Below, piece by piece: positions 5,541 to 29,909 of a DNA stretch of 64,000 nucleotides (positions within the stretch are counted from its first letter, which is position 1; every line of letters starts with the position of its first letter). The stretch lies in contig JAXGYZ010000003.1 of the NCBI GenBank assembly GCA_040772005.1, positions 130,131 through 194,130 on the forward strand, read 5' to 3'. Source of the stretch: Anaerolineae bacterium (GTDB lineage: Bacteria; Chloroflexota; Anaerolineae; CG2-30-64-16). The notes below the pieces were generated by a model. The model ran no database searches. It had not been told where the DNA came from and worked only from the letters and a program-made list of their open reading frames with translations. The position numbers were made by a program, and so were the translations under genes.

Positions 5541-5873
5541 TCAATTCCTCAACTCCGAGATTTCATCAGAATCCGCGGTGTGATAGCGCGTCGAGAGCAC
5601 ATAGAGCAGCGCCAGCACCAGCGAGAATCCGGCCATGCTGATGACGATCGCAGTGAGCACCAGCGCCTGGGGCAGCGCGTCGCTGCGCTGGCCGGTCTCG
5701 TTGACGTAGGCCGCGACCAGGCCCTGGTACGCGCCGGTGGACAGCAGAAACAGATTCACCGCATTCGAGATGATGATCAGCCCGATGGTGGAGCGGACCA
5801 CGTTGCGGCGCAGCATCTGGAAGATGCCCACCCCGAACATCGCGCCGATGGCCAGTGCCTTGAGCAGATCCAT
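5541..5873 (-). CDS. mrpC: Mrp antiporter subunit C (MnhC, NuoK-like)
   Basis: 110-aa protein, MDLLKALAIGAMFGVGIFQMLRRNVVRSTIGLIIISNAVNLFLL, NuoK/MnhC-like. Confidence 0.85.
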   Translation of the reverse strand: MDLLKALAIGAMFGVGIFQMLRRNVVRSTIGLIIISNAVNLFLLSTGAYQGLVAAYVNETGQRSDALPQALVLTAIVISMAGFSLVLALLYVLSTRYHTADSDEISELRN

Positions 5874-8875: not shown

Positions 8876-8984
8876 TCTACACGAAGAATCGATGGACGCC
8901 AAAGGAACACCCGCCCCAGGGTCAGCAGGAGATAGAGGGCAATCCCGAGGATGCCCTGGAGATAGCGTCTGGTGTTCTGGGGCA

Positions 8985-10451
8985 TCACTTCCTCGCTCTC
9001 AGGGCGGACCGGGCCGCGTGATAGCCGCACATGCCATGGACGCCGCCGCCGGGCGGGGTGGAGGCCGAACACAGGTAGATGCCGGCCGCAGGGGTGGCGT
9101 ATGGGTCGCGGCTGAGGACCGGCCGGGCGAAGAACTGCGGCAGGTCCTGCGCGCCGCCAATCACATCGCCGCCCACGTAGTTGGGGTTGTAGGCCTCGAA
9201 GTCCGCCGGCGCCATGACGTGCCGCGCGAGGATGCGCGCCTTGAAGCCGGGCGCGAACCGCTCCACCTGGGCCTCGATGCGTTCGACCATCTCATGTTGT
9301 GACACGGCGTCGTGCGCGCTGTGCAGGTTAGGGACATGGCAATAGGCCCAGGCCGTATGTTTGCCCGCCGGTGCGCGGGTCGGGTCGAAGAGGCTCGGCT
9401 GGGTCAAGATGAGGTAGGGCTGTTCGGGGTGCGAGCCGTGCCACGCCGCCCGTTCCGAGCGTGCCATCTCGGCCAGCGTGCCGCCGAGGTGCACGGTGCC
9501 GGCGGCCCGGCATTCGGCCGTACGCCAGGGGATCGGGCCATCCAGCGCCCAGTCGAGCTTGAATGCGGCCGGGCCGTGGCGATAGCGCGCCAGCTTGCGC
9601 CGGTACGCATAGGGCAGGCGCTCGCCCGCGATGCGGACCAGGTTGATAGGACTGACGTCGAAGAGGTAAGCGCTGGCCCGCGGCAGGTCCGCGAACGAGG
9701 CGACGGGCCGCGCCGTCTCGATCTGGCCGCCCAGGTCGCGCAGGTACGCGGCCAGGGCATCGGCAATGGCCTGCGAGCCGCCCTGCGCGATAGGCCAACC
9801 GACCGCGTGCCCGGCCATGCCCAGGACGAGGCCGTACGCGGCGCTGGCCGGCCGTTCGAGCGGCAGAATCGAGTGGGCGGCGATGCCGGCGAACAGGGCG
9901 CGGGCGCGTTCGCTGCGAAACCAGAGCCGCGCCAGGAGAGTGGCCGGCAGCAGGGCCTGGATTCCGAACCAGATAAAGGCCAAGGGGGAGCGGGGCAGCA
10001 GCGGCAGCGGTCCGAGTAAATCCTCCGTCACGGCAGACCAGCGCCGCACCAGCGGACCCATCAGCCGTCCGTAGGCCGCGGCATCGCGGCCCAGGCCCGC
10101 GGCTGTGGCGGCCACCGAGCGGTCCAGCACGACCGCGGTGCCATCGTCCAGCGGGTGCGCCAGGGGCAGGGGCGGCTCGATCCAGCGCAGCCCGTAGCGG
10201 TCCAGCGGCAGGTCCCGGAAGAAGGGCGACGAGAGGCCGAGCGGATGCACGGCGGAACAGACGTCGTGGCGGAAGCCGGGCAGAGTCATCCCGGTCGTGC
10301 GCGTGCCCCCGCCGACCGTGGGGGCGGCTTCGAGCACCCGCACCGCGCGGCCCGCGCGCGCCAGCGTGACGGCCGCGGCCAGTCCGTTCGGCCCTGCGCC
10401 GATGACGACGGCGTCGTAAACGACGGCGTCGTAGGCAGATGACGGAGGCAC
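8985..10451 (-). CDS. FAD/NAD(P)-binding oxidoreductase, phytoene desaturase (CrtI/CrtD) family
   Basis: N-terminal dinucleotide-binding motif [30 protein letters not shown]....GGG, 488 aa, with the overall architecture of CrtI-family amine-oxidase-like enzymes. Substrate cannot be assigned. Confidence 0.7.
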
Positions 10452-12217: not shown

Positions 12218-12298
12218 TCGTCAACGAATGGGGCAACGAATGAACGAATGGCCGTGCCGGACGAGGATTCGTTCATTCGTGGCGTGATTCGTTGACGG
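12218..12298. terminator. Nested inverted-repeat hairpin between convergent genes (hydrolase + / cgs -). Probable bidirectional terminator related to the ATTCG-rich repeat family
   Basis: CGAATGAACGAAT (12237-12249) pairs with ATTCGTTCATTCG (12267-12279). An outer pair TCAACGAATGG / CGTTGACGG adds a further stem. The element overlaps the cgs stop codon. Confidence 0.45.
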
Positions 12299-15200: not shown

Positions 15201-18200
15201 GTGCCCGTAGAGCAGCGCGGACAGCAGCGTCTGGAAGCGCTCGAGATCGGCGGATGACAGTGTGGACTGGCGCAGCTCGAGTTCGGCGCGCGCGCGCGAC
15301 TGACCGATGGCGTGCTCAACCGAGGGCCAGGCCCGGTAGCGCTCGATGGTTGCCTGCAGCGCCTCGCGGGAGGGGGCCGCGGCGGTGATGAACGCGAGCT
15401 GGGTGGTGGCGCCGCCCGGCAGTTCGACCTCATACTGCAACGCCATGATGGGGTCCAGCGTGGCGCCGACCGAGCCGCGCAACTGGCCGCCGGGACCTGT
15501 ATCTTGTGAGCCGGCCAGCGCGGCCGGCGCGGCCACGCCCGCCGTTCCACGGCCAAGGAACGCGGCCCGGTCGCTCTCATAGCCGGCTGCCCGCGCGGTG
15601 TCGGCGCCCTCGCTGAGCACGAAATGGGCCATAAAGACCGGTGCATCGCTCGCGGCGCGCGGGCGCCGCCTGAACAGGAGCGCGCCCGTTTCGGACTGAT
15701 ATTCGCTTTCGATGAACAGCTTGCTGAAGGCCGGGTGACGCTGGTCTGTCGCCGGGTCGGTCATGACCACTTCGGCATAGCTGGTGAGCGCCAGCCGCCG
15801 GGCCTGCTCGCCCTGGTTGTGCAGCGTGACGCGGCGGATTTCGGCATCGTCATCCGGGGCCACCGCGACCTCCAGCGTCAGCGCAATCTGGTCGTCGGTG
15901 CGCTGGAATTCAGCCTTGTGTGGGTAGAAGCGCACTTCGCTCGCCGCTGGCGCCACACCTGCCGGCTGATGCGTGGCCGACCACAGCCGGCCGCTCGCAC
16001 GGTCCTGCACGTAGAGCCAGGTGCCCCAGTTATCGCGCGTGGTGTCGGGCTGCCAGCGGGTCAGCGCGATGTCGCCCCAGCGGCTTTGGCCGGCGCCGGC
16101 TGCGGATATCAACACGCTGTAGGTTCCGTTCGACAGGCTATGGACAGCGGGCATGGGCGCGTGCACGTGGACCGGCCAGGGCGCGGAGACCACCGGCGCA
16201 ACTGACCTGCGGGCCGGCGCAGCGTCGCCGGGCTGCGGGAACTCGAGCGGCGCATCCGTCGGCACGCGCTCCTGCAGCAGGAGGTCCACGCTTTGGAGGA
16301 GCGGGTCGGCATGGAAGCGCTGCGGCATGGGTGCTTCCTCGCCTGTGCGCAGCTCGTAGAGATAGTTGTCCAGCGCCAGGAAGATCATGCCCTGGTGATG
16401 CGCCATGTACTCGCGCACGACTGCGTGGTCACGGCCGAGCGGCAGGCGGCTGGCCGTGAAATCCAGCGCCTCATAGAGCCCGTAGATGCCGAGGCCGCCC
16501 AGCCGCGCCAGATGTGCCACGTTGTCCACGACCTCGGCCGGGCGGAACGGCAGGGCCAGCAGCGAAGCGTACGGTGCGACGACCGCGTCCTCGGCCAGGT
16601 CGCGCTTGTAGCCCAGCCCGGGCACGCCGAACGCGCGATACCGGTAGTTGTTGTTGCCGTCCAGCGCGTAGAAGCCCGACTCGGAGATGCCCCAGGGCTG
16701 TCCCCGGCGCCGGCCGTAGGCAATCTGGTGATCCACGGCCGCGGTCGCGCTCTCATGCAGCAGGGTCCCGGCATAGGAGCGCATGAACAGCGAGGGCATC
16801 AGGTACTCGAACATGGTGGCGCTCCAGGACAGCAGCGCACGGGCGCCGTTGACCTGGGTGAGCGGCCGGGCCAGGTGCATCCAATGGCTGCGGGGCACCT
16901 CGCGCTTGGCGAGGGCCACCAGGCTGGCGATGCGGGCCTCGGATGCGAGCAGGTCGTAATAGTTCTGGTCCAGCTTGCCCGCGGGCACGTTGTAGCCGAT
17001 GTGGAAGACCTCGCGCTGGCGGTCGAACAGGAAGGCGAAATCTATCTCCCGGAAGTACTGCTCGGCCTGCGTCTCGATGTCGGTGAGGCCAGTCAGGAGT
17101 TCCTCGCCCATCGTCCGGGCTGCCGCGAGCTTCTCACACAGCGCGTCGCACCAGCTATGTACGTCGGCCACCTGGTGCGCATCGTACCGGTCCGCAGGGA
17201 GTTGGTCCACTGCAGCGAGGAGCCGGTCGACTGCCGCCTGCATCGCGGCGACGGCTGCCGGGTACTCTGCGAACGGGGGGATGCTCTGGAGGCTCTCCGC
17301 CAGTTCGTCATACGCGGCCCTCAGCGAATCCGGCAGTTCCGCCGCCTGGAGCAGGGCCGGCCGCTCCCTCAGCCAGGCGAGACCGGGCAGGAGCAGGTCA
17401 ACCGTACGGTGGAAGGTGGATATCTGGTTCTTGATGCGCCCGACCGCGATGCGCAGCGTGCCCAGGGCCGCAGTGCCGATCACCGGCGCGTTCTCTGAGA
17501 TGAGCTGCGTGAGCAGGGTTTCCAGGCGCGGCCAGCCCTCGCCGGCAACGTAGTCGAGGGTTGGACGCCACTTCGCCGGCTCGGCTTCGGCGGCCAGCAC
17601 GCCGTTACGCAGTTCGCCGAGCAGCGTCCGCAGGTCGCGGGCGCCGGAGAGATTCTGCGCGGTTGCGAGGTCAGCCAGGAAATCATCGAGCAGACTCAAT
17701 GTATCGGCCATGCCCTCCCAGCGGGCCCACCGCAGCACCGGCGCCGCGCGCACCTGCTCGCAGGCACGGCCGAGGATCCGCAGGCAGGCGGCGAGGTTGC
17801 CGCTGTCCACAGTCGATACGTAAGCCGGCGCCAGCGGAGCGAGGCTGCGCGTGTCATACCAGTTCAGGAAGTGGCCGCGAAAGCGTTCCAACTGCGCGAG
17901 GCTCTCGAAGGTCGCGCGCAGCCGGGAAACGAGGTTGATGGCGCCGATGTAGCCCAGGTCGTAGGCAGCGAGCGTGGAGAGCAGGAGCAGGCCCACGTTG
18001 GTGGGCGATGTATAGGACGCGACCTTGCCGAGCGGCGCTTCCTGGTAGTGGTCCGGGGGCAGCCAGTGGTCCTCCGGCCCGACAAAATCCTCGAAGAACA
18101 GCCAGGTGCGCCGGGCCAGGCTGTGCAGCGCGGTGCGCTGCGCCGCAGTGAGCGGTGCATGTTCGCGCCGGACGGGCTGGCTGATGCGAAAGGCGATCTC

Positions 18201-20990
18201 GGGGGCGATGGCCCAGAGGAGCAACAGGGGCAGGGCCGCAAACAGGCTGCCGGGCCGCAGCAGGGACAGGACGACGGCTGACGCAACTGCCACGAGCGGT
18301 GAGGCCAGCATCGTCCGCCAGGTGGGCCCGCGGCTGGCGGCCACCATCTGGGCCGACTGTGCAGCCGTCACCCATTCCAGCAGCCGCCGCCGGGTGAGCA
18401 GCACGCGCACCAGGCTGGCGCCGATCGCGTCGAGCATCTGCGCGGCTTCGAACGGCAGGAAGGCGACGGCGAGCAGCCAGCGGCGGAGCCCCGGCCACAG
18501 CGAGCGGGCCGCCTGCCGCCAGGCCAGCGGACCGCGGCCGCGGACGACGGGCGTCAGCGCGCCGGTCAGCGGCGGCACGGCGAGTGCGCCGACCGCGGCG
18601 ACCGTCCACACCAGGGCTGCGCCGGGCAGGAAGAGCCAACCGGCCAGGAGCATCAGCAGGAGGGCAGGCGCGAGCAGGCTGCGCCGCAGGTTGTCGAGCA
18701 GCTTCCAGGTATCGATCCGGTCGAAGTCGGCCCGGACCTCCGGCAGCCCGGCGGGCTTCAGCAGGCGCGGCAGCAGCCACGGCAGGAGCTGCCAGTCGCC
18801 GCGGGTCCAGCGGTGCAGGCGGCGCACGTGCGCCAGGTAAGTGGCCGGATATTCCTCATACACCACGATATCGGTGACCAGCCCGACGCGGGCGTGGATC
18901 CCCTCGAACAGGTCGTGACTGAGCAGGGTGTTCTCCGGCGCGCGGCCGTCCAGGCTGCGCTCGAAGGCGTCGATGTCGTAGATGCCCTTGCCCACATAGA
19001 TGCCGCTGCCGAACAAATCCTGATAGACGTTGGAGACGGCATTGGTGTACAGGTCCAGGCCGATATCGCCCGCGAAGATGCGGCTGAAGTGCGAGTAGTT
19101 GGCGCTGGCCGGGACAATCTCGGTGCGGGGTTGGAGCAGCCCATACCCGCGGCGCACCCGGCCCGTCTCGGGATCGGCCGCGGCGCGGTTGAGCGGATGG
19201 GCCAGGGTGGCGATGAGCGCACGCGCGCCGTCGCGGCCCAGGATGGTATCGGCGTCCAGGGTGATGACGTACTTCACTTGGCGGAGCGCGGCGGTCGGGC
19301 CAATGTAGGACACGATGGACGTATCCGTCGCGCCGCGCAGCCAGCGGTTCAACTCGTGCAGCTTACCGCGCTTTCGCTCCCAGCCAATCCACCGGCCTTC
19401 CTTGGGGTTCCAGCGGCGCTCGCGGTGAAACATGCAGAACGGGCCCTCGGCTGCGCCGGAGAGCGCCGCATAGCGTTCGTTCAACTGCGCGATGCCCGCG
19501 CGCTGCTGCTCCAGGAGCGCTTCGTCGCCCGGCAGATGTTGCTCGTCGGCATCGACGAAGTCGGTCAGCAGGGCGAAATACAGGTTGGCGTCGGGGTTGC
19601 GCAGGTAGTGCTGCTCGATCTGGCGCAGCAGCGAGGCCACGTCCTCCGCATCACCGATCAGCGCGGGCACGACCACCAGGCTGCGCAGGGCATCGGGAAT
19701 GGTCGTCGCGCCGGACTGCTCGGCCAGGTCGAGCTTGGGCAGGGTGCGAGGCGGAACGATCAGGGTGATAATCCAGTCGACCGTCGCGATGGCTGCTGCA
19801 AGGGCCGGCATGAACGTGACGCCGACCGCCAGCAAGACCAGCCACGGGGAGCCCCCCTGTGTCGCGGCGTACAGCGCCGCGCCGAGCACCAGGAACGCGG
19901 TCAAAAACGCGGTGGAGCCCATGTAGACGCGGGCGGGATGCGCGAGCATGGCGCGCATGAGCCGGCTGCTGAGAGAAAAGCGGGCACCCACGCGACGTTC
20001 CAACGCGGTCCGGCCTTCGTCGACCAGGTAGTAACCCACGTGCGCCGCGGGGGGTGCAGCGAAGCCTGTCCAGGTCGCGTCCTCCGCTGCAGCTCCATCG
20101 GCTGCCCGCGTGGTCGGCGCGTATGACAGGTCCGCGCCGGCGCGCTGTGCCAGCTCGATGGCGGCCGCCGCGACATCTCGCTCGCTCTGCCCGCTCGCCA
20201 GCGCGAGGTCTTCGACGCGCCCGCGATAGCGATCCCGGGTGGCGCGGTCCATATGGCGGTAGACATCAGCGGGATCGGTGCGGAGGATCTGTTCCACCTG
20301 GCTGACGCTTTCGAAGAAGTCGCGCCAGTCGAAGTTGGCCATGGTGCGCAGGCTGGTGAAGCAGTTGCCCACGACCTCGTCGTCCGTGAGCGTATGGAGA
20401 AGCGGAGGCGCTGCAGGGCCGCGCGAAGCGCGCATCTCTGCCTCAGCCAGGGCGCGCCCGGTCACATCGCCGGCCGCGCGCGTCAGGACGGAGAGGATAC
20501 CCCAGCGGAGCATGACCGGCAACGCCCAGATTTCGCCGATGGTCAGCGGCTGGGATTCCTGGTAGAGGGCGACAAAGCGGCGCACGCGCTCCATATCGAG
20601 CCGCGCATCGCTCTGCGTCACCAGCCGCTGCGCGATGTCGTAGATGCGCGGGTAACCGCGCAGCGGACCGTCCACCAGCTTGGGCAACTGCCCGTAGTAG
20701 CTGCGGGGCATGTCCTCGCGCACCTGGCGCAGGGCTTGCTGTGCCAGGTGCAGGTTATCCAGCATCCACTCGGCCGCGTGCGAGAGCGTCTGCTCGCCCT
20801 GTCCATCGCGCAGGTAGGCGACCGTTGCGGCCAGAAAGGTTTCCCGGGCCGCGATGCTCTCCAGCAGCCAGGGTTCGCGGCCGCGGCCAGGCTCGGCCCT
20901 GCCCTGAGCCGCGGCCAGGTGAGCGAGGGTTTGTGTGTCTGCTGAGTCGGGAGCGATCCCCGGTCCGGTGTCGTGTCTTTCCTCGCTCAT
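12273..20990 (-). CDS. Cyclic beta-1,2-glucan synthase (Cgs/NdvB/ChvB family): membrane GT84 glycosyltransferase domain plus C-terminal GH94 phosphorylase-like domain
   Basis: 2905-aa ORF with TM segments around the GT domain, DxD and the (R/H)W.RGDWQ-type motif (LHRWTRGDWQLLPWL), and a C-terminal alpha/alpha-toroid cellobiose-phosphorylase-like region. Size and architecture match NdvB. Confidence 0.85.
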   Translation of the reverse strand: MSEERHDTGPGIAPDSADTQTLAHLAAAQGRAEPGRGREPWLLESIAARETFLAATVAYLRDGQGEQTLSHAAEWMLDNLHLAQQALRQVREDMPRSYYGQLPKLVDGPLRGYPRIYDIAQRLVTQSDARLDMERVRRFVALYQESQPLTIGEIWALPVMLRWGILSVLTRAAGDVTGRALAEAEMRASRGPAAPPLLHTLTDDEVVGNCFTSLRTMANFDWRDFFESVSQVEQILRTDPADVYRHMDRATRDRYRGRVEDLALASGQSERDVAAAAIELAQRAGADLSYAPTTRAADGAAAEDATWTGFAAPPAAHVGYYLVDEGRTALERRVGARFSLSSRLMRAMLAHPARVYMGSTAFLTAFLVLGAALYAATQGGSPWLVLLAVGVTFMPALAAAIATVDWIITLIVPPRTLPKLDLAEQSGATTIPDALRSLVVVPALIGDAEDVASLLRQIEQHYLRNPDANLYFALLTDFVDADEQHLPGDEALLEQQRAGIAQLNERYAALSGAAEGPFCMFHRERRWNPKEGRWIGWERKRGKLHELNRWLRGATDTSIVSYIGPTAALRQVKYVITLDADTILGRDGARALIATLAHPLNRAAADPETGRVRRGYGLLQPRTEIVPASANYSHFSRIFAGDIGLDLYTNAVSNVYQDLFGSGIYVGKGIYDIDAFERSLDGRAPENTLLSHDLFEGIHARVGLVTDIVVYEEYPATYLAHVRRLHRWTRGDWQLLPWLLPRLLKPAGLPEVRADFDRIDTWKLLDNLRRSLLAPALLLMLLAGWLFLPGAALVWTVAAVGALAVPPLTGALTPVVRGRGPLAWRQAARSLWPGLRRWLLAVAFLPFEAAQMLDAIGASLVRVLLTRRRLLEWVTAAQSAQMVAASRGPTWRTMLASPLVAVASAVVLSLLRPGSLFAALPLLLLWAIAPEIAFRISQPVRREHAPLTAAQRTALHSLARRTWLFFEDFVGPEDHWLPPDHYQEAPLGKVASYTSPTNVGLLLLSTLAAYDLGYIGAINLVSRLRATFESLAQLERFRGHFLNWYDTRSLAPLAPAYVSTVDSGNLAACLRILGRACEQVRAAPVLRWARWEGMADTLSLLDDFLADLATAQNLSGARDLRTLLGELRNGVLAAEAEPAKWRPTLDYVAGEGWPRLETLLTQLISENAPVIGTAALGTLRIAVGRIKNQISTFHRTVDLLLPGLAWLRERPALLQAAELPDSLRAAYDELAESLQSIPPFAEYPAAVAAMQAAVDRLLAAVDQLPADRYDAHQVADVHSWCDALCEKLAAARTMGEELLTGLTDIETQAEQYFREIDFAFLFDRQREVFHIGYNVPAGKLDQNYYDLLASEARIASLVALAKREVPRSHWMHLARPLTQVNGARALLSWSATMFEYLMPSLFMRSYAGTLLHESATAAVDHQIAYGRRRGQPWGISESGFYALDGNNNYRYRAFGVPGLGYKRDLAEDAVVAPYASLLALPFRPAEVVDNVAHLARLGGLGIYGLYEALDFTASRLPLGRDHAVVREYMAHHQGMIFLALDNYLYELRTGEEAPMPQRFHADPLLQSVDLLLQERVPTDAPLEFPQPGDAAPARRSVAPVVSAPWPVHVHAPMPAVHSLSNGTYSVLISAAGAGQSRWGDIALTRWQPDTTRDNWGTWLYVQDRASGRLWSATHQPAGVAPAASEVRFYPHKAEFQRTDDQIALTLEVAVAPDDDAEIRRVTLHNQGEQARRLALTSYAEVVMTDPATDQRHPAFSKLFIESEYQSETGALLFRRRPRAASDAPVFMAHFVLSEGADTARAAGYESDRAAFLGRGTAGVAAPAALAGSQDTGPGGQLRGSVGATLDPIMALQYEVELPGGATTQLAFITAAAPSREALQATIERYRAWPSVEHAIGQSRARAELELRQSTLSSADLERFQTLLSALLYGHHGLRAEPEVLQANTRGQPDLWAHGISGDYPLLLVRIAEEEALGFVRELLRAHAYWRKRGLMIDLVILNTQLAGYDQGLRDQIQRLLTRMDSDVWLNQRGGIFLLYAHQLNEAANTLLQTTARVILDADAGNLAGTLARLGQQPAPLPAFAPTPVPEQAGPPLPPVMRPADLAFDNGLGGFSPDGREYVIYLDPPHPTPVPWVNVVANPAFGFLVSESGGGYTWALNSGENRLTPWSNDPVTDPPGEALYLRDEETAEVWTPTPQPAGADQPYLVRHGAGYTTFEHHSHGLRQRLRLFVPPDAAVKIVHLRLENATERPRRITATFYAEWLLGTSRAATAQFVIPDFDDDSQALLARNPWYPEFGERVAFAAPSRRLHGLTADRAEFLGRHGTLGCPAALQRIGLSGTIQAGLDPCAALQVHIDLPPGGSDEVWFLLGQGADRAEALALACRYQDGDAVEQAWQAVHGFWDGLLDAVQVRTPEPSMDLLLNRWLLYQSLACRIWGRSGFYQSSGAFGFRDQLQDVMAAVHAAPHLARAHILNAAGRQFEDGDVLHWWHPPSGRGVRTRCSDDLLWLPYVTAHYIEATGDLSILDERVPFLQAPPLAEGEDDRYGEYASTTFQGTLYDHCRRALERGHTAGGHGLPLMGSGDWNDGMNRVGVEGRGESIWLGWFLHATLVRFAAVCEARGDAAQGVAYREQAAALQEALEAHGWDGDWYLRAYYDDGTPLGSGSDSECQIDAIAQSWSVLSGAGDPVRTGRAMDAVLERLVRAEDRLLLLFTPPFDQTPHDPGYIKGYVPGTRENGGQYTHAAIWTTWAYLELGRAATAERLFRLLNPVLHADTAAAVDRYKVEPYVIAADVYSVAPHTGRGGWTWYTGSAAWMYRLGIEGILGLRRTAGGLQIDPCIPPDWPGFEATYRHGSATYHIQVRRDGSSAAPTITVDGRPLAGNLVELHDDGAEHRVDVVSAAVNESRHE

Positions 20991-21955
20991 ACGGTCTGGC
21001 GACTTTCGATGTTGCGTACGACGACTTCCGCCTGTGTCAGGATGGACTGTTCACCGGGCGCATCCTGGAAAATCAACAAGGGACACGAGCCGTAGGCCAG
21101 GAAGCTGGCAACCAGGCTGCCGTGAGGCCAACGCGTTTCACCGGAGAAGCCATGCGCGCTGAGCAGCACCAGGTCTACGCGTTCTTGCTCGACCAGTGCG
21201 TGGAGTGTGCTGGCCACCTGGTGTGCCACGAGGAGACGCGTCTCAACCGTGGCCGGAGGCAACTGCAGGCGCACCCATTCGAGATAGTTCTCGGCCTCGA
21301 CGCGGTTCCGCTCGACGATGCGGTCTGCCAGTTCGGTGTCTTCCTGGCTCGGCGGCGTGCGGCGGGGCATCACAGGTCGTTGGACCACGTGGGCGGCGAG
21401 CACCAGGGTCTCCGGGAGGCGGGCCAGGACGTTGGCCAGCGGCAGCACGGATTCGGCCCGGGCCGAGCCGTCGAGCGGCACGAGGATGCGTTTGTACTGG
21501 AGGGCTTCGCCTTCAGGAACCGGGGCGGCATGCGCGCGCACGATCATAAGCGAGGATCGGCTGCGCATGACCACCTTCTGCACCACACTGCTGACGTTCC
21601 AGCCGCTCAGCCCGGTCTGGCCGTGGCTGGCCAGGAGAATCAGCCTGAGGCCCTGCTCGTCCGCGAAGCCGACGATCAGCTCGGCGGGGTCGCCCGCGCT
21701 GACCTGCGCCTCACAGACAACGCCGGATGCGCGCAGGTGCTCGCACACACCCTGCAGATAGCTCTCCGCTTCGGCCCGGCGCAACTGCCATTCCAGCGGG
21801 TCCACCGCGCGGAGCCGGTCGGGTTGATCCGAGCCTGACAGGACGTGGAACAGGATGAGCTCGGCATTGAAGGCCTGCGCCAGTGCCACTGCGTGCGGCA
21901 GCACACACTCCGCAAGCGCGGAGCGATCCAGGGGAACCAGGATTTTATCGAACAT
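20987..21955 (-). CDS. Tandem universal stress protein (2x UspA domain)
   Basis: Two Usp repeats (MFDKILVPLDRSALAECVLPHAV...; KRILVPLDGSARAESVLPLANVLA...). The stop overlaps the cgs ATG in an ATGA arrangement. Confidence 0.8.
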   Translation of the reverse strand: MFDKILVPLDRSALAECVLPHAVALAQAFNAELILFHVLSGSDQPDRLRAVDPLEWQLRRAEAESYLQGVCEHLRASGVVCEAQVSAGDPAELIVGFADEQGLRLILLASHGQTGLSGWNVSSVVQKVVMRSRSSLMIVRAHAAPVPEGEALQYKRILVPLDGSARAESVLPLANVLARLPETLVLAAHVVQRPVMPRRTPPSQEDTELADRIVERNRVEAENYLEWVRLQLPPATVETRLLVAHQVASTLHALVEQERVDLVLLSAHGFSGETRWPHGSLVASFLAYGSCPLLIFQDAPGEQSILTQAEVVVRNIESRQTV

Positions 21956-22328: not shown

Positions 22329-23408
22329 CTATCGCAGCGCCTTTGCGACCGCTGCGGCGCGGCTGTCCACGTCGAGCTTCTCGAAGATGGCCTTGAGGTA
22401 GCGCTTGACGGTGTTCTCCGAAATGACCATTGCGCGGGCGATGCCCTTGTTGGTGAGGCCCTGCACCAGCAGGTCGAGCACCTCCCGCTCGCGGCGGGTC
22501 AGCCGGGCGACCTCGCCGCGGCCCGCGCGGCCGGCCGAGGTGGCCTCCTGCACGGCGGTGACGAAGCCGCTGCGCTCGAAGCGCTGCTTCTCCAGGCACG
22601 CGAAGACCGCGAACTCGCTGTAGAGCCGCTCCAGGTCGGCGGGGGTCGCCAGCCCGCTCACGACGATGGCCGGGATGCCGGCGGCTTTCGCCTCCCGCAG
22701 CACCTCGAAGCCGTCGCGGTTGGCCCCCGCGGCCAGCGAGTTCGCGAGCGACAGGTCTGCGACGACCAGGCTGTGCTTCTCCCGCCGCAGGTGGCCGAGC
22801 GCCTCACCATAGCTGAGGCACGCGTGGACGGAATAGCCGGCATCCGCCAGCAGCTCCGCCAGGATCGCGCGCCAGCCCGCATCATCTTCGACCAGCAGGG
22901 CCTTGCCAGGGTGCACCGAGAGAGCCGGTGGGGGTGCAGCGGCGAGCTTTGGCGGCGTGGTGGCCCCTCTCGTTGCGGCAGCCTCGCCCCGGGCAACGGG
23001 AGGCGCAGCAACCGGGGCCTGCGCCAGCATCTCCCGGATGACCTGGCGGAACTCTGCACGGCGGAAGGCCTCCTTCCGCAGGCAGGTGTGTGCGCCGTAG
23101 CCGGTCAACACGCTGACGGCAATCTCGACCGTCGCGTAGCCGGTCAGCAGCAGCGCGACGCAGTTGGGGTCCTGGCGGCGGACGGCCTCCAGCACGCGCA
23201 GCCCGTCGCGGTCGCCTTCGTCATCGGGCCGCAGCGAGAGGTCCACCACGGCGACCCGGTGCGGCGCGGCGCGCAGGTGCGCGACCGCGGCGTCCAGGTC
23301 CGCAGCCACATCCACGGCCAGCCCCATGTCGGTCAGCAGCTCGGTCAGAATCTCCTGCCAGGCGGGGCTGTCCTCCACCACCAGTGCGCGCGGTGTAACA
23401 GACGTCAA
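22329..23408 (-). CDS. Response regulator with two receiver (REC) domains and a LuxR/FixJ-type HTH output
   Basis: Two REC cores (ALVVEDSP...VVDLSL...; ALLVEDDAG...VVADLSL...) plus a C-terminal LuxR HTH ([36 protein letters not shown]). Start is set at the TTG at 23406-23408, preceded by GGAGG. The long N-terminal extension in the ORF track overlaps the kinase gene and is rejected. Confidence 0.7.
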
Positions 23409-25399
23409 GAGGCCGCCTCCCCGTCCGCCTGCCGTGCAGCCTGCGGCAGGCGCAGGCGGAACGTCGTACCGCGGCGCCCGTCGCTCTCGACCGAGACCGC
23501 GCCGCCGAGCCGGGTCATCATCGTCTTGACCCACCAGAGCCCGAACCCCAGCCGCGACCGCGCGCTTCGGGCACCTTCGGCGCCCAGCCGACCGTCGGCC
23601 CGCCGCCGCTCGGAAAACCGGAATTCGAAGATGCGCGCCTGGTTGTCCGGCGGGATGCCCGGCCCGTCGTCGGTAATTGCCAGCTCGACCCAGTCTCCCG
23701 CTGCGGTCCCCCCAATCTGCACGACGCCCCGGCCGTTCATGGCTTCCGCCGCGTTGTCCAGCAGATTGACGATAACGAGGGCCAGCGTCTCTCGGCCCGC
23801 CAGCACCGGCGGGAGCTGATCCAGCCCGGCCGACTGCACCGCCACGCCGGGCGGCAGCCGCGCCGCGGCCAGCGCATCGGCCACGCAGCCGGCCACGCTG
23901 ACCGGCCCGGCCTCGATGGGGTGGAGCAGGGCCAGCCGGTCGCGCACGGTCGCCATCGCGTCGAGTGCGGCCCGCTCGATCTCCGCCAGGTTGGCTGCCA
24001 GGTAAGGGTTGTCCGCCAGCGCGGGCGCGCATTTGTCCTGGATGCCCTCGATGCGCACCGGGATGGTGCCGACCTTGTTGTTGAGGTGGTGGAGCAGGTT
24101 CGCGGCCACGTCGCCCATCGCGGCGAACGTCTCTGCGACTGCGCGGGCCTCCTGCGCCTCGCGCAGCGCCTCCTGCCGCGCTGCGTTGGCCCGGGCGAGG
24201 GCCTCATACTCGGCCAGGATAGCTTCGACCTTCCGATCCCACTCCGTATCGCCGCTCACCAGGTCGCCGCGCAGGGCGGCCAGGTGCGCCTGGACCTGGC
24301 TGAGGTCCTGCGTCAGTACGCGCGTCGAGGTGTCGCGCAGCGCGTCGAGCAGGCGCACTTCCTGAATGGCGATGACGGCCTGGGTCGCGAGTCCCTGCAG
24401 CAGGTGACTGTCCGCCTCGCTGAACGCGCCGGCGTGGGGGCTTTCGAGGTTCAGCACGCCTTCCAGCCGACCGCCCGCGCCGATGAGCGGCACGGCCAGC
24501 TCCGCGCGCATCTGGAGCGAGTGGTCCAGCGGGTAATAGATGCGCGACCAGGGCGGCTCGCGCACGTCCGCGATGTTGACGGGCTGGCGCGTCTTGGCCA
24601 CGAGGCCCATGATGCTCGTCGTGTTGATGGGCAGCGCCTCGACCGCAGGCCGGCCCAGCCGTTCGCCTGCAATGGCCCGCATGACGAGGTTCTGGCCGCT
24701 GCGGTCCACGAGCCGGAAGATGCCGTAGCGCGCGCCGGTGACCTCCAGCGCCATCTCGAGGATGGCAACGAGCGTGTCTTCGAGCCGGGTGCGCGAGGAG
24801 ATCAACAGGCCCGCATGGCGCAGCAGGGCCAGTTCGTCCTCCTTGCGCGCGAGGTTGCGCCGTGTGTGCGTGACCTGGCCGGCGAGGTAGAGGGCCATGG
24901 CCGCCTGTGCGACGAAGTTGTCCAGCAGGAGCAATTCGAGCTGGCTCAGCCGCCGCGCCTCCGTCAGGTAGACATAAAGGGTACCGAGCGGCTGGCCCGC
25001 CACGAGCAGCGGCAGGCAGGCTGCGGCGGCCGCCCCGGCAGACCGGCGGTCGGGATGGATGTCGAGGTCCGGCTCATCGTATGAGAGCACGGGCTGCGTG
25101 CGGCGGATGGCGCGCATCCCCAGGCCGTCCGGTCGGGGGGTCGCATCGCGGAGCAGGGCCGGGTGGTCGCCCGCCGAGGTGCGCGAGACCGGGTCCAGGC
25201 TGCTGCGGGCGGGGTCGTAGGTGTACAGGATGGCCGTCGCGCCCGGGATGATGGTGACGGCGCTCTCCGCGATGAGGCGCAGCGTCGCGTCGAGGACGGC
25301 GGGGTCGCCCAGGTTGAGCTGGTTGACCCGCCGGCCCACGTCGCGCAGTTGCGCCAGGACTGCCAACAGGCGGCGATCTTCGTCAGGCGTCACGGTCAT
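23405..25399 (-). CDS. Sensor histidine kinase with two GAF domains (HisKA_3/NarX-like dimerisation region, HATPase_c)
   Basis: 664 aa. It has GAF-like regions, then an H-box region ([13 protein letters not shown]) and an ATPase region (LLDNAAEAM...ITDDGPGIP...GFGLW). The partner is a LuxR-type regulator, consistent with the NarL/NarX class. Confidence 0.75.
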
Positions 25400-25426: not shown

Positions 25427-25816
25427 TCACCGCACTTCTGGGACCTTCCGCCGCTCGTCGATATCGTCCGGATATTGCAAGGCCTGTTGTCCGCGCTCGC
25501 CGGTGCGGATGCGGATGACGTCGTCCACCGGATAGACGAAGATGAGCCCGTCGCCGATGTCGCCGGTGGCTGCGGCCTCGCAGATGGTCTCGATGGCCTT
25601 GGCGACGTTGTGGTCGCTCAGCACGATGTTCACCTGCAGCCGGGGCAGCAGGTCCACCTGGTAGCTGCCGGAGCGCCCGGTGAGCGTGATGCCGCCCTGC
25701 CGCCCGTGCCCCCGGCACTCGGTCACATTCATGCCCACGATGCCGATGCGGCGCAGCGCGTCCTTGACATCGTTGAGTTTCTCTTCCCGGATGATGGCTT
25801 CGATCTTCTTGGTCAT
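25427..25816 (-). CDS. glnK: Nitrogen regulatory protein P-II (GlnK)
   Basis: MTKKIEAIIREEKLNDVKDALRRIGIVGMNVTECRGHGRQGG... is the canonical PII sequence with a T-loop. Start is the ATG at 25814-25816 with GGGGAG as RBS, immediately downstream of amtB. Confidence 0.9.
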   Translation of the reverse strand: MTKKIEAIIREEKLNDVKDALRRIGIVGMNVTECRGHGRQGGITLTGRSGSYQVDLLPRLQVNIVLSDHNVAKAIETICEAAATGDIGDGLIFVYPVDDVIRIRTGERGQQALQYPDDIDERRKVPEVR

Positions 25817-25838: not shown

Positions 25839-25865
25839 GTAGGACGGGTTGCCAACCCGTCCTAC
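25839..25865. repeat. 27-bp perfect palindrome GTAGGACGGGTTG-C-CAACCCGTCCTAC between amtB and glnK
   Basis: 13-bp GC-rich arms with a 1-nt centre. Near-identical second copy at 27218-27244. Confidence 0.6.
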
Positions 25866-25873
25866 TGAAATCC

Positions 25874-27097
25874 TTATGCGTACGCGCGCTCGCCGTGTTC
25901 GCTGATGTCCAGGCCGACCTGCTCCTCGGTCGGCGTGACGCTCAGGCCGACCGTCCGGTTGAGCAGCCGGGTGATGACGGTTGTGAGTGCGAAGGCGAAG
26001 GCGGCGACGGCCACGACGGTCAGGAGCTGCACGGCGAGCTGCCCGGGGTTGCCATAGAGCAGGCCGTCCGCGCCGGCAGAGTTGATGGTCTTCGTGGCGA
26101 AGATGCCGGTCGCAATCGCGCCCCACGCGCCGCCCATCCCGTGACACGCCCAGACATCGAGCGATTCGTCCAGGTGGCGCTTCTGGCGGAACTTGATGGC
26201 GTAGTAGCTGATGGGGGCCGCCAGCCCGCCGATGACGATCGAGGCGAGCGGGGTCACGAAGCCTGCCGCGGGTGTAATCGCGACCAGCCCGACGACTGCG
26301 CCGGTGACGATGCCGAGGATGCTGGGCTTATGGTCGCGCCAGCTCAGGAGCATCCAGACGAGTCCTGCGGCGGCGGCAGCAGTGTTGGTGTTGACCACGG
26401 CGGTGACCGCCAGGCCGTTGGCAGCCAGCGCGCTCCCGCCGTTGAAGCCGAACCAGCCGAACCACAGCAGCCCCGCGCCCAGGATGCTGAACGGGATGTT
26501 GTGCGGCTCCATCGTCCCGTTGCCGTAGCCCGCGCGCTTGCGGATGACCAGCGCAAAGGCCAGCGCCGAGAAGCCTGCGGTGATGTGCACGACCGTGCCG
26601 CCGGCGAAGTCCAGCGCGCCAAGCTGGCGCAGCAGCCCGCCGACGCCCCAGACCCAGTGTGCCACCGGGTCGTAGACGAAGGTGGCCCACAACAGGCTGA
26701 AGAGCAGGAAAGCCTTGAAGCGCACGCGCTCGACGAACGCGCCGGTGATGAGCGCCGGGGTGATGACGGCGAACGTCATTTGGAAGGCGGCGAAGGCCAT
26801 GTGCGGGATGGTTGCAGCGTACTCGGCGTTCGGCTCCGCACCGACGCCCGTCAGCCCGGCAAAGTTGAGCCCGCCGATGATCCCGCCGAGCGAAGTCCCG
26901 AACGCGAGCGTGTAGCCGACCAAGACCCACTGCAGGCCGATCAGGCCCATCATGACGAAGCTGAGGTTGAGCGTGGAGAGGACGTTCTTCCGGCGCACCA
27001 TGCCGCCGTAGAAGAAGGCCAGCGCCGGGGTCATGAGGGTCACCAGCCCCGTGGCGACGAGGATCCAGGCGGTGTCGCCTGCGTTGATGCTATCCAT
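25874..27097 (-). CDS. amtB: Ammonium transporter (Amt/AmtB family)
   Basis: MDSINAGDTAWILVATGLVTLMTPALAFFYGGMVRRKN... carries the Amt signature. ORF trimmed to the ATG at 27095-27097. The classic amtB-glnK pair supports the call. Confidence 0.9.
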   Translation of the reverse strand: MDSINAGDTAWILVATGLVTLMTPALAFFYGGMVRRKNVLSTLNLSFVMMGLIGLQWVLVGYTLAFGTSLGGIIGGLNFAGLTGVGAEPNAEYAATIPHMAFAAFQMTFAVITPALITGAFVERVRFKAFLLFSLLWATFVYDPVAHWVWGVGGLLRQLGALDFAGGTVVHITAGFSALAFALVIRKRAGYGNGTMEPHNIPFSILGAGLLWFGWFGFNGGSALAANGLAVTAVVNTNTAAAAAGLVWMLLSWRDHKPSILGIVTGAVVGLVAITPAAGFVTPLASIVIGGLAAPISYYAIKFRQKRHLDESLDVWACHGMGGAWGAIATGIFATKTINSAGADGLLYGNPGQLAVQLLTVVAVAAFAFALTTVITRLLNRTVGLSVTPTEEQVGLDISEHGERAYA

Positions 27098-27193
27098 CGG
27101 TCTGCTCCTTTCGTGCATGTGCTGCGTCGCGCCGTTCGGGCGCGGCCCGCCAGTCACATGCGGCAGGATAGCAGAGCGGGATGGCGTGCGCCA

Positions 27194-27209
27194 GTACCCA
27201 TTTGGGTAC
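27194..27209. promoter_or_regulatory. Palindromic motif GTACCC-N4-GGGTAC ~100 bp upstream of amtB. Candidate nitrogen-regulator operator
   Basis: GTACCCATTTGGGTAC. A closely related site, GTACCCGAACGGGTAG, lies ~120 bp upstream of glnA at 29829-29844. Confidence 0.4.
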
Positions 27210-27217
27210 AAAAATCA

Positions 27218-27244
27218 GTAGGACGGGTTGTCAACCCGTCCTAC
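27218..27244 (-). terminator. 27-bp palindrome GTAGGACGGGTTG-T-CAACCCGTCCTAC, followed on the minus strand by TGATTTTTG. Likely intrinsic terminator of hsp33 (and/or operator upstream of amtB)
   Basis: It is 8 nt after the hsp33 stop. A 13-bp stem plus a T-run on the transcribed strand. Same sequence family as 25839-25865. Confidence 0.55.
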
Positions 27245-27251
27245 AACGCTG

Positions 27252-28133
27252 TTACTCGACGGTCTCCCGCTCGCGCAGGATGCCTTCGAGGTCTTCCGCG
27301 CTGAAGTGGTAGCGCTCGTAGCAGAAGTGGCAGTCCACGATCGCTTCCCCCTCGGCCAGCAGCGCGAGCAGGTCCTCCGCCTCGAGCATCTTGAGCGCCT
27401 GCCGCGAGCGCTCCCAGCTGCACGTGCAGTGGAACTGGACGGGCCGTTCCTCCAGGACCTCGTACTGCACGGGGCCGAAGACGCGGTCCATCAGCTCGTG
27501 CGGGCCGAAGTCGTCCGCCAGGAGCGTCTCCAGCGGCGGCAGATCGGCCAGGCTGACGGCAAGCTGCTCGACGGCCTCGCGGCCGCGGCCGGGCAACGCC
27601 TGGATGAGCAGCCCGCCGGCTGACGCAATGCTGCCGTCTTCGTCCATGCGGACGCCGATTCTGACCAGCGACGGGACCTGCTCGGAGGTGTTGAGGTAGT
27701 TCTCCAGCTCCGGGGCGAGCTGCCCGGTGTCGAGCGGGACGACGCTGCGGTAGAGGTCCTTGAGCCGCATGTCCTTCACGACGGTCAGGATGCCCTCGTG
27801 GCCCAGCGCCTCACCGACCGCCTCTGCCCCCAGGTCATCGCCCGACGCCGCATCGGGCACGGCCACGTAGCCGCGCGCCCGGCCATAGGCGTCTGCCTCG
27901 ACGACCAGCTTACGCAGCCGGCCGCCGCCCTCGACCTTGAGCGCAATGCGCTCCTGCACCTTGAGCAGCGCGCCCAATAACACACCGGCCGTCAGGCCGT
28001 GCGCCAGTGCGGCTGCCGCAATCGGGTAGGCGGCATGGCGCCGCGCGGCCTCCTGCGCCAGTTCCGTTGTCACACATGCCAGCGCGCGCACCCCGGCGTC
28101 CTTCGCCATCACGCGCAGAATATAGTCACTCAT
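27252..28133 (-). CDS. hslO: Redox-regulated chaperone Hsp33 (HslO)
   Basis: Hsp33 fold with the C-terminal zinc-centre cysteines (CTCSWER...CHFCYERY). Start trimmed to ATG 28131-28133 (MSDYILRVMAKD). Confidence 0.85.
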   Translation of the reverse strand: MSDYILRVMAKDAGVRALACVTTELAQEAARRHAAYPIAAAALAHGLTAGVLLGALLKVQERIALKVEGGGRLRKLVVEADAYGRARGYVAVPDAASGDDLGAEAVGEALGHEGILTVVKDMRLKDLYRSVVPLDTGQLAPELENYLNTSEQVPSLVRIGVRMDEDGSIASAGGLLIQALPGRGREAVEQLAVSLADLPPLETLLADDFGPHELMDRVFGPVQYEVLEERPVQFHCTCSWERSRQALKMLEAEDLLALLAEGEAIVDCHFCYERYHFSAEDLEGILRERETVE

Positions 28134-28219
28134 GTCCCTCTCCCGTTTTCGACTGATGCTGCGGCGCATTCTACTCGCAAACGGGGATTCTGTCAGCAAA
28201 TCAGCCCACAATCAGGGGA

Positions 28220-28275
28220 AACAAAAACCCCGGTTTCAGAGGTGAAGCAAAGCTTCACACGAAACCGGGTTTTCT
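28220..28275 (-). terminator. Rho-independent terminator downstream of glnA
   Basis: Minus-strand RNA would form a hairpin (AAAACCCGGTTTC...GAAACCGGGGTTTT with an inner GTGAAGC-TTT-GCTTCAC stem) followed by TTTTGTTTCCCC. Confidence 0.6.
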
Positions 28276-28296
28276 GGGCGGGTTGCTCTGCTGATG

Positions 28297-29712
28297 TTAT
28301 GCGTCGAAATACAGCGTGAACTCGTGCGGGTGCGGGCGCATCCGGATCGGGTCGACCTCGGTCTCGCGCTTGTAGGCGATGTACGTCTTGAGCATGTCCG
28401 TCGTGAAGACGTCGCCCTTGAGCAGGAACTCGTGGTCCTCTTCGAGCGCCTTCAGGACCGCATCCAGCGAGCCCGGCACCTGCTTGATGAGCTTGGCTTC
28501 CTCCGGCGGCAGGCCGTACAGGTCCTTGTCCATCGGCTCGCCCGGGTCGATGCGGTTCTGGATGCCGTCCAGCCCGGCCATCAGCAGCGCGGCGAAGGCC
28601 AGATAGGGGTTGCACGACGGGTCGGGCGCACGGAACTCCACGCGCTTCGACTTGGCGCTCTTGGACCCGACCGGGATGCGGCAGATGGCCGACCGGTTGC
28701 GCTGCGAATAGGCCAGGTTGACGGGCGCCTCGAACCCGGGCACGAGGCGGCGATACGAGTTGGTCGTCGGCGCGACCAGCGCCAGCAGCGCGGGCGCGTG
28801 CTTCAGCAGGCCGCCGATGTAGAACTTGGCCGTATCCGAGAGCTGCGCGTAGCCCGTCTCGTCGTAGAATGCGTTCTTGCCACCCTTCCAGATGCTCTGG
28901 TGGCAGTGCATCCCGCTGCCGTTGTCGCCGTAGAGCGGCTTGGGCATGAAGGTGGCCGTCAGCCCGTTCTGCCGCGCCACGTTCTTGACCATGTACTTGT
29001 AGACCATCACGTTATCGGCCATGTGCAGCAGCGTGTCGAAGCGCATGCCGATCTCGCCCTGCCCGCCGGACGCGACCTCGTGGTGATGAATCTCCACCGG
29101 GATGCCCGCACTCTCGATGGCAAGCACGATGCGGCTGCGCACGTCCTGGAGGGTGTCCACGGGCGGGGTCGGGAAGTAGCCGCGCTTGGCCGCAATCTGC
29201 CCGCCGAAGTTGGGGCCGATGTCCTTGCCGCTGTTCCACCAGCCCTCGCGGCTGTCGATGTGATAGTACGCCTCGTTGGTGCTGCTGGCGTAACGCACGT
29301 CGCCGAAGATGAAGAACTCGGCCTCCGGCCCGAAGAAGACCGTGTCCCCGATGCCGGTCTGCTTCAGGTAGGTCTCGGCGCGGCGCGCGATGTAGCGCGG
29401 GTCGCGGCTGTATGGCTCGCGCGTGATGGGGTCGTAGACGTCCCCGATGATGACGAGCGTCGGCACCTGGTAGATGGGGTCGATGAACGCGGTCGTCGGG
29501 TCCAGCAGCAGGAGCATGTCCGATTCGTGGATTTCCTTGAAGCCGCGAATGGACGAACCGTCGAACGGGACGCCGTCCTCGAAGGTGTCTTCGGAGAGGA
29601 CATGCGCAGGAATCGTGAAGTGCTGCCAGACGCCGGGCAAGTCGGTAAAGCGCAGGTCGACCATCTGCACTTGTTTCGCCATTTCCATCACGTCAGCGAC
29701 TGTCTTGGACAT
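28297..29712 (-). CDS. glnA: Glutamine synthetase type I (GlnA)
   Basis: 471 aa. The N-terminal beta-grasp and the catalytic domain carry canonical GSI motifs (DLRFTDLPG, ...[11 protein letters not shown]..., [10 protein letters not shown], ...[10 protein letters not shown]). Confidence 0.95.
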
Positions 29713-29733
29713 GGAAAAGCCCTTTCGGTTGAG

Positions 29734-29757
29734 TTACGAATTGAGAATTACGAATTG
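29734..29757. promoter_or_regulatory. Direct repeat TTACGAATTG x2 (14-bp register) 20-45 bp upstream of the glnA start codon
   Basis: GTTACGAATTGAGAATTACGAATTGCGG. Candidate regulator binding site in the glnA 5' region. No function established. Confidence 0.3.
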
Positions 29758-29828
29758 CGGGTCGCCGTGCGAACCGGTCGCCCCAACGAATCGTTGAGAG
29801 TATATCCGGCACAGGTTGACGCCGTATA

Positions 29829-29844
29829 GTACCCGAACGGGTAG
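29829..29844. promoter_or_regulatory. Palindromic motif GTACCC-N4-GGGTAG in the divergent glnA / enolase-family intergenic region
   Basis: GTACCCGAACGGGTAG. Same half-sites as the site upstream of amtB (27194-27209). Confidence 0.4.
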
Positions 29845-29909
29845 TATTTGGGGGTGTGTTATGATGCAGCGGTATTTCGCTGTCCAAGACTGACTCCAAG
29901 AGGTGACCC

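Follow-up and report, generated by a model that had tools for sequence, protein, structure and literature searches.

Two palindromes of the form GTACCC-N4-GGGTA lie upstream of the ammonium transporter gene amtB and the glutamine synthetase gene glnA in a 64-kb stretch (64,000 nucleotides) of contig JAXGYZ010000003.1 from an uncultured Anaerolineae bacterium (GenBank assembly GCA_040772005.1), referred to here as the window. On the evidence of sequence comparison, the palindromes are a real and conserved regulatory site of nitrogen-assimilation genes in Anaerolineae, and the protein that binds them is most likely an uncharacterised response regulator of the NarL/FixJ type, the gene for which lies in the same cluster. 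We put the probability that these dyads are operators of a nitrogen-assimilation regulon specific to Anaerolineae, with the regulator and mechanism proposed below, at about 0.7. The cores of the two sites and the predicted target genes are as follows.

27194–27209: core of site 1, GTACCCATTTGGGTAC, 5' of amtB (ATG at 27097, minus strand) with 96 nt between.
29829–29844: core of site 2, GTACCCGAACGGGTAG, 5' of glnA (ATG at 29712, minus strand) with 116 nt between.
25874–27097, minus strand: amtB, ammonium transporter, target gene (Pfam Ammonium_transp, E = 1e-124).
28297–29712, minus strand: glnA, type I glutamine synthetase, target gene (Pfam Gln-synt_N/C; NCBIfam TIGR00653, 666 bits, above the cut-off).

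The positions in the original prediction were exact, including the gaps of 96 and 116 nt and the 65 nt that separate site 2 from the start (29910, plus strand) of a divergent gene. Within the window, GTACCC-N4-GGGTA was found only at sites 1 and 2, and 100 dinucleotide-preserving shuffles yielded 0.00 matches. Tolerating two mismatches added a single match, at 274, which is unrelated.

A search of species-representative genomes with GlnA returned approximately 60 Anaerolineae (Chloroflexota) metagenome-assembled genomes (MAGs) at 70–90% identity, followed by other phyla. The MAGs compared are related to one another and are not phylogenetically independent. A total of 133 loci was fetched, and these are numbered L001 onwards. 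In about 45 Anaerolineae loci, where GlnA is 71–90% identical to that of the window, the site was found 75–145 bp 5' of glnA (up to 263 bp in a few loci), and both its sequence and its position were kept in flanking DNA that could not be aligned. The motif was not found in 19 loci from other lineages. Phylogenetic footprinting had been suggested as a check on the original prediction, and its outcome was that most Anaerolineae loci keep the motif 5' of their orthologues of glnA and amtB, and that other phyla lack it.

The full element in relatives is an 18-bp palindrome, A-KK-ACCC-AWWT-GGGT-MM-T, that is A-(G/T)(G/T)-ACCC-A(A/T)(A/T)T-GGGT-(A/C)(A/C)-T, because one flanking A/T pair is conserved too. 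The ACCC/GGGT core is invariant. A symmetrised weight matrix was built from 38 non-identical sites, with the glnA sites as the training set, and has an inverted-repeat core of 5-N4-5. At a threshold of at least 15 bits, this matrix detected 82 sites in 1.11 Mb of Anaerolineae DNA versus 0–2 in shuffles, and it detected none in 0.30 Mb from Ardenticatenaceae, Thermoflexus, Chloroflexaceae, Acidobacteria, Actinomycetota and Proteobacteria. Several promoters had a second site 34–73 bp upstream. The two operators in the window are as follows.

27193–27210: operator 1 (amtB promoter), 18-bp palindrome, minus-strand sequence TGTACCCAAATGGGTACT, 23.0 bits.
29828–29845: operator 2 (glnA promoter), 18-bp near-palindrome, minus-strand sequence ACTACCCGTTCGGGTACT, 22.5 bits.

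The genes that follow the site point to nitrogen assimilation. Sites on which the matrix had not been trained were found 5' of amtB in at least 11 related loci, 5' of a Na+/H+-exchanger gene that precedes amtB and genes for a P-II protein, a histidine kinase (HK) and a response regulator (RR), and 5' of a gene for a CitMHS-family transporter in three to four loci. Such sites were also found 5' of gltB and of a GATase-glnA operon, as well as 5' of glnE in some loci, of a PucR-type regulator gene and of P-II-HK-RR and HK-RR operons. A scan of metagenomes that was blind to gene content, using the motif followed by 22 nt and TATAAT and hence sampling only sites with a perfect TATAAT at that distance, returned 42 matches, four of which were too short to evaluate. 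Among the 38 usable matches the next gene downstream was glnA in 22, amtB in eight and a citrate synthase gene in two, with one unclear; glnA or amtB thus lay directly downstream in 30 of the 38. Six matches lay in DNA of 30–34% GC with unrelated genes downstream and are probably due to chance. The original prediction had proposed a common nitrogen-responsive transcription-factor site, and conservation in relatives and the specificity scans support this. It had also named equal frequency upstream of unrelated genes as grounds for refutation; this was not observed, as there were 82 sites against 0–2 in shuffles and the gene-blind matches mostly preceded glnA or amtB.

Further members of the regulon are indicated by individual loci. 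In L093 and L094, both metagenome contigs, citrate synthase genes lie directly 3' of a canonical motif and -10 element, and the citrate synthase sites suggest that the regulon also governs the supply of the 2-oxoglutarate carbon skeleton. A 24-bit site at 6045–6062 in L046 is found 5' of a PucR-family regulator gene (4692–5816, minus strand) and may represent a sub-regulon for purine or nitrogen scavenging. In many Anaerolineae, glnA is divergently adjoined by a gene encoding a GlnE-like adenylyltransferase of about 1200 amino acids (aa) with an inserted ACT domain (e.g. 6203–9802, minus strand, in L025). This gene has a site of its own in L039, and in L023 a site is found between glnE and the kinase gene. 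As a bidirectional target of the glnA site, divergent glnE was rejected apart from these two loci, and it is only an occasional member of the regulon because there is no consistent -10 at the canonical distance. The GlnE-like gene is missing beside glnA in the window, where its position is occupied by the divergent gene mentioned above.

The site holds a fixed position with respect to the promoter. When 78 sites were aligned, each oriented to its gene, a -10 element could be recognised in 71, and the spacing between the 18-mer and this TATAAT-like hexamer was exactly 22 nt in 58 of these promoters and 23 nt in eight. A -35-like hexamer, which reads TAGAC(A/G) in most relatives, begins with the final T of the palindrome, and an A-rich tract lies directly 5' of the palindrome. 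At the second -35 position, where the consensus has T, this base was found in only 6% of sites, and the -35 is therefore sub-optimal. With the -10 set at -12 to -7, the dyad centre is predicted to precede the transcription start of a sigma-70-type promoter by about 43.5 bp, a position derived from the predicted -10 only. A fixed distance to the (predicted) -10, a -35 that is abutted or overlapped and a sub-optimal -35 are the features of a class II-type activated sigma-70 promoter, in which the activator is bound at about -42. The alignment of the 78 promoters predicts the following elements in the window, all on the minus strand.

27188–27193: amtB -35-like hexamer TGGCGC, a weak match, its first T being the last base of the palindrome.
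27165–27170: amtB -10 hexamer TATCCT, 22 nt past the 18-mer.
29823–29828: glnA -35-like hexamer TATACG.
29799–29804: glnA -10 hexamer TATACT, 23 nt past the 18-mer.

In the closest relatives of the window (L001–L005), TATACT is found at 22 nt in the glnA promoter.

A candidate for the protein that binds the site is encoded behind site 1 itself. The genes concerned, all on the minus strand and downstream of amtB, are as follows.

25427–25816: glnK, P-II signal protein of 129 aa with ATG 25816 as the start (Pfam P-II).
23405–25399: cytoplasmic sensor histidine kinase with two GAF matches and HATPase_c (Pfam), candidate nitrogen-status sensor.
22329–23408: response regulator of 359 aa with a TTG start, made up of two receiver (REC) domains and a LuxR/GerE-type helix-turn-helix (HTH) (Pfam Response_reg in two stretches, GerE), candidate binder of the palindrome.

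An AGGAG ribosome-binding site is found 5' of the amtB ATG at 27097, and amtB is the putative first gene of an amtB-glnK-HK-RR operon. Gaps of 18 and 27 nt and a regulator start that overlaps the kinase stop by 4 nt make it probable that the kinase–regulator pair forms an operon with amtB-glnK behind site 1. In relatives the pair is conserved, the GAF histidine kinase measuring about 750 aa and the REC-REC-GerE regulator about 355 aa, and the order of genes is kept, with glnA or amtB/P-II followed by the kinase and then the regulator. A tblastn search with an unrelated LuxR-type protein likewise placed a GerE HTH about 3.3 kb 3' of glnA in many loci. Of 38 glnA-anchored loci with sufficient flank (4.8 kb or more on the downstream side), 24 have an orthologue of the kinase behind glnA or P-II, as do the loci anchored on the regulator. 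In this set the pair was present in 24 of 31 with the motif versus one of seven without it (naive Fisher p = 0.0035, the genomes being non-independent), and the sole locus with the pair that lacked the motif has a 14.7-bit site, just under the threshold.

Loci anchored on homologues of the regulator, which are independent of glnA, gave the same picture; the site was found in all seven that could be evaluated. The orders found in this set were glnE-glnA-hsp33-amtB-P-II-HK-RR, glnA-P-II-HK-RR, glnA-amtB-P-II-HK-RR, NaH-amtB-P-II-HK-RR (NaH, the Na+/H+ exchanger), glnE-glnA-hsp33-HK-RR and amtB-P-II-HK-RR. Two stand-alone HK-RR operons with no nitrogen genes nearby had their own site (at 7590 in L086 and at 7459 in L090), followed by a -10 at 22 nt, as autoregulation predicts. 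In L087, a unit of about 55 nt is repeated in tandem (bases 1–254) directly 5' of a stand-alone kinase gene, at the expected operator position.

The best matches of the regulator in the PDB were FixJ, StyR-type, NarL, GerE and DevR. Both receiver domains retain the conserved Asp, Thr/Ser and Lys, and the recognition helix is NTVKRYLK, with NTVKR(H/Y)LK near-invariant in orthologues of 35–100% identity, which matches the invariant ACCC/GGGT core. At least 1963 proteins belong to the family at E of 1e-20 or better, all under generic names, and NCBIfam contains no equivalog for either the regulator or the kinase. The core of the kinase resembles ZraS/AtoS/FixL-type kinases, and its GAF domain gave a weak PDB match to the GAF of DevS (E about 1e-6). 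Judged by its scores, the system is not an orthologue of NarL, FixJ or NtrC, because all NCBIfam scores were far under the cut-offs (for NarL, 48.8 bits against 250).

Two features expected of an operator of the NarL/FixJ family were found, in that a GerE-output regulator with a receiver is available and the site is a short inverted repeat of the homodimer type (14–20 bp). The consensus of the NarL heptamer is TACYYMT, and the half-site here, TACCCAT, fits it. A high-affinity experimental site for NarL is TACCCCTAAAGGGGTA (PMC4549865). At yeaR, the NarL site TAACCAATAAATGGTA is centred at -43.5, just 5' of the -35, and NarL activates by contacting the RNA polymerase alpha subunit's C-terminal domain (PMC10853779). 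The dyad described here has the same predicted position, about -43.5 and just 5' of the -35 of a sigma-70 promoter. In the NarL helix STVKVHVK, bases are read by K188, V189 and K192 (PMC10853779); K188 and K192 are kept in the candidate regulator and V189 is replaced by R. The LuxR/GerE-type HTH output is common to both proteins, with two receiver domains in the candidate. The sensors and regulons differ, since NarX is a membrane-bound nitrate sensor and NarX/NarL control nitrate respiration, whereas here a soluble GAF kinase with a ZraS/FixL-like core is associated with ammonium assimilation. Operators were also found in tandem, 34–38 bp apart, 5' of the Na+/H+-exchanger gene or amtB in L011 (1795/1833), L012 (6795/6833), L016 (2836/2874) and L017 (8302/8336), which recalls the double NarL sites at -44.5 and -77.5 in the ogt promoter (PMC10853779).

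Other members of the family provide parallels in geometry. RcsB, also of the NarL/FixJ family, has a 14-bp 5-N4-5 pseudo-palindrome (PMC7913699). The RcsB box TN(G/A)GA-N4-TC(T/C)NA shares the 5-N4-5 geometry, the 14-bp length and the homodimer with the site described here, and differs in half-site sequence and in biology. The site of NreC is TAGGG-N4-CCCTA. NreC binds GC-rich palindromes (PMC8139620), and the DosS/DosT-DosR system of Mycobacterium and NreABC of Staphylococcus likewise combine a GAF sensor with a NarL-type regulator and GC-rich palindromes. These systems differ in their signals (O2/NO/CO and nitrate/O2, respectively), their regulons, their single receiver domain and their half-sites.

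Taken together with the promoter geometry, this leads us to infer the identity of the binder, positive regulation and the nature of the signal. Under nitrogen limitation, the cytoplasmic GAF kinase (23405–25399) would phosphorylate the dual-receiver LuxR-type regulator (22329–23408), its signal being 2-oxoglutarate or glutamine perceived via the GAF domains and/or the co-encoded P-II protein as in NtrB. A dimer of the regulator would bind the palindrome at -43.5, which can be read as two NarL-type heptamers TACCCAT placed back to back without a spacer, and would recruit RNA polymerase as NarL does at yeaR. Activation of glnA and amtB-glnK would follow, and so would that of the kinase and regulator genes, which amounts to positive autoregulation. 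The site would in relatives also induce gltB, the CitMHS transporter gene, the Na+/H+-exchanger-amtB operon, citrate synthase and sometimes glnE. Activation is favoured because the phase with the -10 is fixed and the position is identical to that in the NarL-yeaR complex.

Several observations weigh against this scheme. The heptamers abut in a 7-0-7 arrangement with a 14-bp core, as opposed to the 7-2-7 (16 bp) of NarL, and a regular-expression search for the 7-2-7 pattern found none in either intergenic region. In low-GC relatives the promoter, TAGACA-17 nt-TATAAT, is fairly strong by Escherichia coli standards, which leaves room for repression. A perfect hairpin at 25839–25865, between amtB and glnK, could limit read-through to glnK, the kinase and the regulator, and the claim of autoregulation is for this reason weaker for the genome of the window. 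Seven loci have the motif and no two-component system in the fetched flank; the pair may lie elsewhere in these, just as 3 kb separate it from glnA in the window. Because the recognition helix is invariant, covariation between helix and half-site is uninformative. The link from the regulator to the motif is drawn from gene linkage, autoregulatory sites and family resemblance.

Repression by the same regulator is one alternative, though it is unlikely. Bound at -52 to -35, the protein would occlude the -35/UP region under nitrogen plenty and be released under limitation. Overlap of the palindrome with the first base of the -35 hexamer would suit this, as would a core promoter near consensus in many relatives (TAGACA-17 nt-TATAAT), an A-rich tract 5' of the site that could be an UP element masked by bound protein, and the presence in some promoters of a second site downstream of the first (e.g. 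L082 at 5648). However, a dyad placed 22 nt from the -10 in 58 of 71 promoters, before differing genes and in distant genomes, is what is usually seen with activators that must contact RNA polymerase, and steric repression does not need it; NarL also activates yeaR from an identical position (-43.5). The avoidance of T at the second -35 position (6%) and the poor -35s in the window (TGGCGC and TATACG) also argue against repression, and positive autoregulation is the common pattern of two-component operons.

Binding by an unlinked factor, either of the CRP/FNR type or another dimeric HTH protein, with the two-component system merely a member of the regulon, is improbable as well. CRP/FNR-type class II activators, NtcA among them, also typically bind palindromes of 14–16 bp near -42, and the seven loci with the motif and no two-component system in the fetched flank could be explained in this way. 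Against this, the half-site equals the NarL heptamer and a regulator with a NarL-like recognition helix is encoded in cis, the stand-alone kinase–regulator operons have their own site, and absence of the motif goes together with absence of the two-component system. Around the sites no other transcription-factor gene is conserved. A single-receiver NarL-type regulator encoded divergently from glnA was considered as the binder and rejected, as no locus other than L008 and L010 has it. A palindrome that arose by chance or has no regulatory function, for example a repeat element or what is left of a terminator, can be dismissed as very improbable even with a perfect repeated hairpin only 8 nt from site 1, given that 0 matches are expected by chance, that the site is kept in sequence and position at 71–90% GlnA identity where its flanks cannot be aligned, that its phase with the -10 is fixed, that its enrichment over shuffles exceeds 40-fold and that it is confined to nitrogen-assimilation promoters.

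The operators of known nitrogen regulators are different. TnrA/GlnR recognises TGTNA-N7-TNACA, AmtR CTAT-N6-ATAG, NrpR GGAA-N6-TTCC and actinobacterial GlnR direct repeats of GTnAC-N6-GaAAC, while NtrC/sigma-54 systems combine a TGGCAC-N5-TTGC promoter with an AAA+ enhancer-binding protein and upstream TGCACC-N5-GGTGCA sites. Regular-expression searches of both intergenic regions found no NtcA, TnrA/GlnR, NrpR, AmtR, NtrC, sigma-54 or actinobacterial GlnR pattern, which bears out the original statement that the site is unlike those of NtcA, TnrA/GlnR, actinobacterial GlnR and NrpR. Actinobacterial GlnR, TnrA/GlnR, AmtR and NrpR fill the same role of master regulator over glnA and amtB but belong to other protein families (OmpR, MerR, TetR and NrpR) and use other operators.

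NtrB/NtrC is the closest in function, with two-component control of glnA and amtB-glnK, genes beside glnA and autoregulation, the last being a prediction here. The best NCBIfam matches of the kinase core and the first receiver, albeit weak, were to AtoS/ZraS/NifL and to NtrX/NtrC-type modules, and in many Anaerolineae loci the P-II gene is directly 5' of the kinase gene. Unlike NtrC, the candidate regulator has neither an AAA+ sigma-54 activation domain nor a Fis-type HTH. With their TATAAT the promoters are of the sigma-70 kind, a strict TGGCA-N6-TTGC is missing from them, and the site is promoter-proximal rather than an upstream enhancer, with a sequence unlike TGCACC-N5-GGTGCA. NtcA resembles the proposed regulator in being a global nitrogen activator, in having a palindrome about 22 nt from the -10, beside or in place of a poor -35, and in its targets, which are glnA, amtB and carbon-skeleton genes. 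It is a CRP-family protein that binds GTA-N8-TAC at -41.5, whereas the site here is GTA-N10-TAC with essential CCC/GGG at about -43.5.

The site is best described as a new nitrogen-control variant inside the NarL/FixJ family, with a role like that of NtrBC and NtcA and an architecture like that of NarL at yeaR. Searches of the literature on nitrogen regulation in Chloroflexi/Anaerolineae and on NarL-family nitrogen regulators found no description of it, the RegPrecise Chloroflexi collection (30 regulogs) not having been inspected. The suggestion that it could be the operator of an undescribed regulon stood as far as the literature searched is concerned, but the site is no orphan by family, having a NarL/FixJ-like half-site and promoter position and a candidate regulator in the same operon.

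On balance we favour the view that Anaerolineae, and perhaps more of the Chloroflexota, possess an undescribed master regulator of nitrogen assimilation, consisting of a soluble GAF kinase and a dual-receiver NarL/FixJ-type activator that acts at sigma-70 promoters from a 7-0-7 palindrome at -43.5. If true, this would be a new class beside NtrC, NtcA, GlnR (OmpR family), TnrA/GlnR (MerR family), AmtR and NrpR, and a functional parallel of NtrBC with a different output domain and no dependence on sigma-54. Nitrogen control would have been solved once more with another family of transcription factors. Anaerobic digesters, sediments and soils are rich in Anaerolineae, which are hard to culture, and no published account of the control of nitrogen assimilation in them was found. 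What is gained is a precise operator, a promoter architecture, a named candidate sensor–regulator pair and a first list of the regulon, comprising glnA, amtB-glnK, gltB, glnE (in some genomes), the CitMHS and Na+/H+ transporter genes, the citrate synthase gene and that of the PucR-type regulator. The question is now open to electrophoretic mobility shift assays, reporter assays and metatranscriptomics, and the regulon could be used to read the nitrogen-limitation status of Anaerolineae from metatranscriptomes.

The remaining features near the two sites in the window, the DNA of which has a GC content of 67%, are as follows.

27252–28133, minus strand: hsp33 (Pfam), situated between sites 1 and 2.
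Start at 29910, plus strand: MR/MLE (enolase-family) gene (Pfam MR_MLE), divergent from glnA.

The distance of 65 nt between site 2 and the enolase-family gene was given correctly, but this gene was rejected as a target. It is probably not controlled from site 2, because it is not a conserved neighbour and that side of the site has no -10 at 21–23 nt. A scan of the whole window at the Rfam gathering thresholds found no RNA families, and neither the amtB nor the glnA leader thus has a known riboswitch as an explanation.

The terminator-like hairpin of hsp33 ends 8 nt before site 1. It is one of two perfect copies of a 27-nt hairpin, GTAGGACGGGTTG-N-CAACCCGTCCTAC, at 27218–27244 and 25839–25865, which bracket the promoter and gene of amtB; one copy follows the hsp33 stop codon and the other is found between the amtB stop and the glnK start. 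No copies are expected by chance in the window, and none of the 133 fetched loci contains the hairpin. Its role may be to part amtB from glnK-HK-RR as a terminator or attenuator, or it may be a REP-like element that marks an insertion of amtB.

In the 5' leader of glnA, a tandem direct repeat, AATTCGTAACTC and AATTCGTAATTC, is found at 29731–29756 (minus strand), 19–44 nt 5' of the ATG. Short repeated motifs are also present in the glnA leaders of relatives (e.g. L003), and the leader in the window has no match to an Rfam family. The repeat may be a second control element that acts after initiation. Just 3' of the response-regulator gene there are two further genes on the minus strand, a tandem-Usp gene (20987–21955) and, following it, a gene (12273–20990) for a 2905-aa protein with GH94, glucoamylase and GT2 domains that resembles cyclic beta-1,2-glucan synthase.

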